Virus record (IMG/VR): IMGVR_UViG_2667527592_000008
Direction: 5' to 3' (one strand)
Source of the DNA: a virus
Lineage: Duplodnaviria; Heunggongvirae; Uroviricota; Caudoviricetes
DNA length: 39,041 nucleotides
Positions 34,940 to 35,097 of the stretch are shown here, in pieces. The notes below the pieces were generated by a model. That model had not been told where the DNA came from. It was given only the letters and a program-made list of their open reading frames with translations, and did not search any database. How positions within the stretch are numbered: position 1 is the first letter of the stretch; each line of letters begins with the position of its first letter. Position numbers and translations under genes: made by a program.

Positions 34940-35097
34940 TCAAAAGCGCCCAGAAAAAAGCGCAAAAAAAAGCGTTTTTGGTCATTTCTCACAAATCCGC
35001 CCAGAATCACACTAAATCACCACACCCCGCGCCACACAAGGCTTGCTGGTTCTACCAGGCTGCACTAACTCCGCCCAGAATTGATCACTACCCCACA
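34940..35097. repeat. Prophage left-end region with three direct repeats of a CCGCCCAGAA-type motif (candidate transposase-binding sites)
   Basis: GCGCCCAGAAAAAAG (34946), CCGCCCAGAATCACAC (34997) and CCGCCCAGAATTGATCAC (35071); the last is followed by CCCCACA ending near 35097, consistent with a 5'-TG...CA-3' transposable-phage terminus. Confidence 0.45.

Follow-up and report, generated by a model that had tools for sequence, protein, structure and literature searches.

The DNA analysed here, the 39,041-nucleotide stretch of virus record IMGVR_UViG_2667527592_000008 (hereafter the window), is almost wholly a Mu-like prophage on the minus strand, with its early genes at the right side, and the prophage lies inserted in vat, the gene for the vacuolating autotransporter toxin, a SPATE protein. 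Three short direct repeats lie beside the junction of phage and vat, raising the question of whether they are the sites by which the phage transposase recognizes its own DNA end. A previous inspection of the letters without database searches (the sequence-only reading) had noticed the repeats, described them as unlike the L1-L3 consensus of Mu, proposed a terminus near 35097, and suggested a lineage with distinct end recognition that should carry inverted copies of the motif at its right end. Our analysis indicates that positions 34934-35097 (minus strand) are very probably attL, the left, repressor-proximal end of a ~36-kb Mu-like transposable prophage inserted after vat nucleotide 1620, and that the three CGCCCAGAA repeats are the cores of ~22-bp bipartite putative transposase sites, termed L1, L2, and L3.

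Comparison with uninterrupted vat was used to position the terminus. Intact vat alleles from 549 Escherichia coli genomes match the window from 35098 onward, and at 35097 the window has A where intact vat has T. The end of this phage recurs at ~20 unrelated positions in the chromosomes of other E. coli, among them an RHS gene, ypdF, eutC (strain E2348/69), and the gene for a TonB-dependent receptor, and all matches stop at 35097. Given the start of the vat alignment, the A/T difference, and the common stop point in other genomes, the junction lies exactly at 35097, so that the proposed terminus was correct to the base. The left end finishes ...CCCCACA at this position; its terminal CA dinucleotide (35096-35097, plus strand; 5'-TG on the minus strand) is the presumed site of cleavage and strand transfer, in keeping with the junction mapping and with TG...CA termini in 8/8 relatives. 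Read from the terminus inward, attL begins TGTGGGGTAGTGATCAATTCTGGGCGG, and ~164 nt are kept where the adjacent sequence of relatives has diverged. In the left-end alignment this conserved block ends just past L3, and beyond 164 nt the STEC316 sequence diverges. The prophage family is carried by 50 of 5426 complete E. coli genomes (~1%), the vat::prophage junction was not found in any complete E. coli genome, and a DNA search of the phage collection with the left end returned no match, near or distant.

The repeats themselves proved to be confined to this end. Exactly three copies of CGCCCAGAA are present in the window (at 34947, 34998, and 35072) and none elsewhere in it, all on the plus strand and all within 151 bp of the junction; two read CCGCCCAGAA and the third reads GCGCCCAGAA, and on the strand read from the terminus the repeat core is TTCTGGGCG. 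L1 (35071-35092, minus strand) occupies nt 6-27 from the terminus, with its core TTCTGGGC at nt 18-25 and a proximal half-site GTG at nt 10-12, the same register as the R1 site of relatives. L2 (34997-35018, minus strand) has its core at nt 92-99, 74 bp from that of L1, and L3 (34946-34967, minus strand), which reads GCGCTTTTTTCTGGGCGC, has its core at nt 143-150, 51 bp from that of L2. The L1-L2 spacing of 73-74 bp is kept in relatives from Serratia, Pantoea, Sodalis, Citrobacter, Yersinia, and Salmonella. Nine-mers may recur by chance, and whole-window shuffles gave 0.36 CGCCCAGAA matches on both strands, with 1 of 100 shuffles reaching three; functionless, compositional repetition could thus be proposed. 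However, the three copies fall within 134 bp beside a mapped terminus (a rough Poisson estimate puts the probability of at least three copies within one 160-bp stretch at ~5e-10), they are mirrored at the other end of the element, they are conserved in diverged relatives, and they covary with the transposase. Chance has a negligible probability in our assessment and is effectively refuted by the right-end symmetry and conservation described below. As a separate observation, CGCCCAGAA with one mismatch allowed occurs 25 times against 11 expected, a number that no shuffle reached; apart from the three exact copies, these matches are scattered through coding sequence, and their excess may be a codon-composition effect.

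The innermost repeat invites another explanation, namely that L3 is part of an intrinsic terminator hairpin insulating the prophage from outside transcription and that its likeness to the other copies is incidental. Two terminator-like hairpins found by a consensus scan overlap 34946-34979, but two matches against 0.9 expected represent no excess, the stems are short and A/T-rich, and the core and its spacing are kept in relatives whose flanking hairpin sequence differs. We therefore regard a terminator in place of a transposase site as very unlikely, a dual role of L3 as both transposase site and part of a terminator being possible. The promoter and terminator consensus scan yielded nothing above chance overall, and Rfam gave nothing above threshold at 34600-35300. 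A dyad, CTGGT-AGA-ACCAG, was observed in the L1-L2 spacer at 35046-35058 (nt 40-52 from the left terminus), at a position that presumably corresponds roughly to that of the Mu pac site. In STEC316 two compensating changes give CAGGT-AGA-ACCTG; M8 and E2348/69 show single mismatches in the dyad, and it is missing from more distant relatives.

Recognition by a transposase that pairs two ends calls for matching sites at the far end of the element. The window begins inside the tail-fibre region, and hence the right end of its own prophage is absent. Both ends were read instead in eight complete E. coli relatives, GF75, Ec55, M8, STEC316, E2348/69, S13, 08-00022, and UMNF18, among which the complete GF75 prophage (L001 5251-41225; 35,975 bp) aligns at 99.5% with window positions 1259-35097. 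The right end of the relatives starts TGTAACTTCGCGTTTTTTTCTGGGCTAATTGGCGCACAATTCTGGGCGGAGAGAGCGCAACCAAAAAGCCCAGAATTGG, its first bases being TGTAAC. In these complete relatives the TTCTGGGC core lies at nt 18-25 from both termini and is inverted between the ends, so that the inverted copies anticipated by the sequence-only reading are present in all eight, at the same distance from the terminus as on the left. The R2 core follows 22 bp inward of the R1 core, and R3 lies on the opposite strand. Specificity is high in GF75, where TTCTGGGC occurs seven times in 43 kb and six of the seven are end sites, three per end; for the bipartite pattern GYG-N5-TTCTGGGC, with 0.09 matches expected, the only matches are five of these six. 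Five diverged right ends provide a footprint, since only nt 1-26 (R1), 33-48 (R2), and 62-83 (R3) are invariant, while the spacers and everything past nt ~88 vary. The presence of three sites per end, their symmetry, and the conservation at the right end support their assignment as transposase sites. For the window prophage itself, the far junction would be expected ~900 bp past window position 1 and would read ...AATG/TGTAACTTCGCGTTTTTTTCTGGGC.

The candidate reader of these sites is a 680-amino-acid transposase of the MuA family encoded at 31691-33733 (minus strand; Pfam Mu-transpos_C, HTH_Tnp_Mu_1, and rve). Judged from its sequence it is a very distant relative of MuA, the phmmer alignment with MuA in the Mu transpososome structure 4FCY (E = 6e-4) covering the catalytic core only, and its catalytic DDE residues, as judged from invariant positions among homologues and from an integrase motif alignment, are probably D308, D374, and E414. 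The protein has ~2000 homologues. Its closest counterparts in sequenced phages are those of Pseudomonas phage VW-6B (49% identity) and of Yersinia and Klebsiella phages (44-46%), followed by Mannheimia 3927AP2 and Haemophilus SuMu (both 40%) and D3112-like phages (31%); Mu was not among the best phage proteins, all of which were at most 49% identical. The records of Pseudomonas VW-6B and Klebsiella ST405-OXA48phi1.1 have been cut at the first gene or within it, and their ends were unusable. At the structural level, a full-length AlphaFold model (predicted local distance difference test, pLDDT, 72.7) matched 4FCY best among PDB structures (E = 3e-13) and TnsB next. Residues 95-205, encoded at 33119-33451 (minus strand), were modelled as six helices with a pLDDT of 89.4 and a predicted template modelling score of 0.83, and their top four Foldseek matches came from two proteins (probability 0.97-0.99), the fifth reaching 0.10. 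This region is predicted to fold like subdomain Ibeta of MuA, the binder of Mu ends; MuA binds these ends through its Ibeta and Igamma subdomains (PMC3362531). Within the Ibeta-like region lie a putative specificity patch, residues 137-188, and residue 181 (D181, codon 33191-33193), which the models place in the first turns of a helix spanning 177-189, after an 11-residue basic loop (NARQGKRTGVS).

Residue 181 was found to covary with the site core. In a tally of 21 loci, including Serratia and Sodalis loci, D181 was accompanied by TTCTGGGC in 10/10 and Q181 by TTCTGGAC or TTCTGGAT in 11/11, with zero exceptions; the core types differ at position 7, which is G with D181 and A with Q181. Proteins bound to DNA commonly contact adenine through glutamine and the cytosine of a G:C pair through aspartate, and residue 181 may act in this way here. 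An alignment of 42 transposase sequences showed Q at residue 181 in more than 90% (motif SLQEW), with D only in the window type and in clusters P0003 and P0029. Left ends were read for ten transposase clusters. The D181 clusters P0029 and P0003 each carry TTCTGGGC three times, and TTCTGGAC or TTCTGGAT is carried by the Q181 clusters P0031 (Citrobacter), P0046 (Yersinia), P0048 and P0085 (Salmonella), P0058 (Edwardsiella), P0023 (E. albertii), and P0030 and P0014 (E. coli). Where the core type was predicted from the protein alone, the prediction was right in 5/5 loci (P0029, P0003, P0030, P0014, and P0031).

UMNF18 offers what resembles a natural exchange of this module. Its transposase is 96.0% identical to that of the window, and 14 of the 27 differences fall within residues 137-188. 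By comparison, residues 121-280, and hence 137-188, are invariant in eight GGGC-type transposases, two of which have 50-57 differences elsewhere. Of the 84 nucleotide differences in the UMNF18 transposase gene, 45 are concentrated in codons 121-210 (22 synonymous and 14 non-synonymous codons), and the flanks have at most 2 per 90 nt. This segment of UMNF18 is a recombination patch that does not reach the left end. A tract running in from a diverged left end was considered as its source and rejected, the intervening codons 1-120 being nearly identical. The UMNF18 sites carry TTCTGGAC at L1, L3, R1, R2, and R3 and TTCTGGAT at L2, in an otherwise unchanged architecture with an identical R1 flank. 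That ends 36 kb apart both match the module is what the hypothesis of transposase binding predicts.

These results bear on the possibility that the repeats serve another DNA-binding protein, such as the CI-type repressor, the Ner-like protein, the pac machinery, or host IHF/HU. The repeats lie directly downstream of the repressor gene, the entire 164-bp block is conserved including its spacers, and the left end of Mu likewise contains its pac site. However, the right end, 36 kb distant, has three inward-facing copies of this core at matching distances from its terminus, an arrangement for which pac or immunity sites would have no reason. Variation in the core base tracks the Ibeta-like patch of the transposase and not the repressor type, which differs among relatives of one core type. 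That the repeats serve a different protein instead of the transposase is accordingly improbable, although it is the most probable of the explanations set against recognition by the transposase.

Several points nonetheless weigh against recognition by the transposase. All 164 bp of attL are conserved, spacers included, so that the left end alone shows no footprint, and the two-end symmetry is known from relatives, the right end of the window's own prophage lying outside the window. The sites are not uniform: the proximal half-site of L2 is 2 nt nearer the core than at the other sites, and core position 9 is T, not G, in R1 and R3. The D181 state probably has a single origin followed by recombinational spread, so that the 21 loci cannot be counted as 21 independent events; the realistic number is two or three, the patch swap in UMNF18 being the clearest. 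Lastly, the sites, their two-end symmetry and conservation, the predicted domain fold, and the covariation of protein and DNA are direct results of the comparisons, from which we infer physical binding of the transposase to the sites; for binding and transposition the support is indirect and comes from the covariation of residue 181 and the 137-188 patch with core base 7 in the 21 loci.

The insertions of this lineage share a target-site duplication shorter than that of Mu. A 4-bp duplication flanks 8/8 independent lineage insertions (GAAG, AGCG, CATT, AGGG, AGTG, AATG, CAAG, and CATC; junctions L001, L004-L007, and L052-L054). A 5-bp duplication, obtained by shifting either terminus by one base, was tried as an alternative and fails in 7 or 8 of the 8 insertions. 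In the window, AATG at 35098-35101 (plus strand; vat nucleotides 1621-1624) is the predicted copy of the duplication, as judged from the intact vat sequence and the related insertions, and the second copy would lie beyond the left edge of the window. A 4-bp duplication also flanks two elements within Shiga toxin (Stx) phages, confirming the annotation of their depositors. These elements, Mu_JNE082796 and Mu_JNE122137 (LC727881 and LC727895), are grouped here with Sp18 of O157 Sakai as Sp18-like prophages of Shiga toxin-producing E. coli (STEC) (PMC10132054, PMC2669165). For LC727881, a 5-bp duplication with a TG start was considered and ruled out, as LC727895 upholds the depositors' reading of 4 bp and TA. 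The literature retrieved gives no scar lengths other than 5 bp (Mu) and 6 bp (B3) and regards one of these two lengths as diagnostic (PMC8705779); searches for transposable prophages that rely on such a scar would therefore mis-call the ends of this clade. No published description of the ends or the duplication length was found in literature searches for the window lineage or for Sp18.

The features described above are best explained by a mechanism in which each site is most likely bound by one transposase monomer through Ibeta-like and Igamma-like subdomains, which would presumably divide the half-sites between them. Monomers on the three left and three right sites would pair the ends into a transpososome, which would cut after the terminal CA and join them to the target DNA at a 4-bp stagger, a presumed chemistry. 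We further consider it possible, at somewhat less than an even chance, that the Enterobacterales clade of the window prophage forms a distinct subgroup of MuA-family transposable phages with two features so far undescribed in Mu, a 4-bp target stagger and a compact, exchangeable Ibeta-like module (residues ~137-188) whose residue 181 would distinguish core base 7, Asp pairing with G:C and Gln with A:T. If so, a swap of the module by recombination would demand a change at all six end sites, and prophages of one host would acquire transposition specificities orthogonal to one another.

Further proteins are encoded in the early region next to attL. A MuB-like AAA+ transposition ATPase (30779-31672, minus strand; Pfam AAA_22 and TniB) adjoins the transposase gene on one side and a Ner-like small DNA-binding protein (33733-33969, minus strand; Pfam HTH_35) on the other, and a CI-type repressor (34138-34785, plus strand; Pfam Phage_CI_repr) is transcribed toward the left end; the annotation of relatives agrees for the last two. 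Beyond the junction, the 3' part of vat, from nucleotide 1621 to the stop codon (35098-37608, plus strand; Pfam Autotransporter), matches the vat gene of many E. coli genomes at 100% identity. Relatives with a 691-amino-acid transposase (P0030 type) have a repressor (L064 1480-2058) with a weak HTH_Tnp_Mu_1 match, resembling the Mu c repressor, in place of the CI type of the window, and this difference implies that the immunity module has been exchanged independently of the end-recognition type.

Further observations concern other parts of the prophage and its relatives. Window positions 1-1258 (the tail-fibre and tail-fibre-assembly end) gave no megablast match to the GF75 prophage, which elsewhere is 99.5% identical, and the host-range module thus appears to have been swapped relative to GF75. 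Relatives also differ in the tail-fibre region, where one GF75 coding sequence is annotated as 'integrase'. In a draft genome of E. coli, a P0014-type prophage (L065 138-1067) also directly adjoins an autotransporter gene. The 08-00022 copy carries the IS66-family element ISCro1 in its tape-measure gene (L053 10157-12772), which brings its length to 39,012 bp, and is probably defective.

The analysis gives exact ends and likely transposase sites for a prophage family that disrupts genes such as vat, eutC, ypdF, and one for a TonB-dependent receptor, and known ends allow base-exact annotation of such insertions. The natural pair D181/TTCTGGGC versus Q181/TTCTGGAC offers a testable case of a MuA-type domain reading its site and could supply orthogonal mini-Mu-like tools. 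Specialist interest lies in this natural specificity pair with a swapped module and in the clade-wide 4-bp duplication, and the general picture of Mu-type transposition is unchanged.

Comparison with related elements showed that the core varies among lineages while its register is kept. TTCTGGAC occurs with 73/51 spacing in Serratia (transposase 62% identical) and in Pantoea and Sodalis (45%), the TTTGATAC core in Klebsiella, Raoultella, Limnobaculum, and the Sp18-like STEC prophages, and TTCTGCAC in Morganella; TTCTGGGCG was found at the left end in 0 of 40 loci from other species. The TTCTGGAC-type Enterobacterales relatives as a group (UMNF18, E. albertii, Citrobacter, Yersinia, Salmonella, Edwardsiella, Serratia, Pantoea, and Sodalis) share with the window the terminal TGTGGGG, the core at nt 18-25, and the spacings of 73-74 and 51 bp, and their transposases are 45-96% identical to that of the window. 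They differ in having A instead of G at core position 7 and Q181 instead of D181.

The Sp18-like prophages resemble the window prophage in host species, in the broad transposase clade (44% identity), and in the 4-bp duplication, and they match its architecture, with the core at nt 18-26 from each terminus and present in triplicate on the left. In contrast, their core is TTTGATACC rather than TTCTGGGCG, their L1-L2-L3 spacings are ~71 and 42 bp (74 and 51 bp in the window), their right end terminates in TA rather than CA, and the putative recognition-helix segment reads SLKRW rather than SLDSW. In both LC727881 and LC727895 (L010 1678 and L051 41430) the left terminus is 5'-TG and the right end is ...CTATA (5'-TA), an asymmetry unusual for Mu-like phages; the boundaries are supported by the TTTGATACC core at nt 18-26 of both ends. 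A more remote parallel is provided by the ends of Tn7 and CRISPR-associated transposons, which also present multiple direct ~22-bp repeats to a MuA-like DDE transposase, TnsB, the next-best structural match after MuA. Those elements, however, are not phages, are targeted by TnsC, TnsD, or Cas proteins, and produce 5-bp duplications, and their sites have no sequence similarity to those of the window.

Mu itself provides the closest comparison in design. We took TGNTTCAYTNNAARYRCGAAAR to be the 22-bp MuA consensus of Mu. This pattern recovers L1, L3, R2, and R3 on Mu and has 0 matches at three or fewer mismatches across the window, which bears out the claim that the repeats are unlike the Mu consensus. 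The Mu sequence, read directly, has L1 at nt 6-27, R2 at nt 28-49, and R3 inverted, and the window lineage follows this plan: TG...CA termini, three ~22-bp bipartite sites per end, L1 and R1 at nt 6-27, R2 abutting at nt 28-49, an inverted R3, and a spacer between L1 and L2+L3. Like Mu, it also has a transposase with a predicted Ibeta-like end-binding fold, a DDE core, and Mu-transpos_C, with the gene for a MuB-like ATPase adjoining. The differences are that the site sequence GYG-N5-TTCTGGGCG is unrelated to the TGNTTCAYTNNAARYRCGAAAR of Mu, that L2 and L3 are nearer the terminus (cores at 92 and 143 versus Mu sites at ~111 and ~151), that R3 lies ~10 bp further inward, that the target duplication is 4 bp versus 5 bp, and that the repressor of the window prophage is of the CI type. 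The traits of Mu/D108 proper (genus Muvirus end recognition), namely a consensus match, a 5-bp duplication, and a close MuA relationship, are thus missing, and those of Mu-type transposable-phage ends that can be read from sequence are present, with TG...CA termini, multiple inverted sites, genes for a MuA-family DDE transposase and a MuB-like ATPase, and many loci with short duplications. The proposal of a lineage with distinct end recognition holds. The marginal similarity to MuA, the absence of the Mu consensus, and the sister cores TTCTGGAC, TTTGATAC, and TTCTGCAC at the same register speak for it, with the qualification that the architecture is the same as that of Mu. Lineage-specific end sites are expected for any diverged Mu-like phage and are therefore no surprise here; the end recognition of the window lineage differs from that of Mu in sequence and is the same in design.
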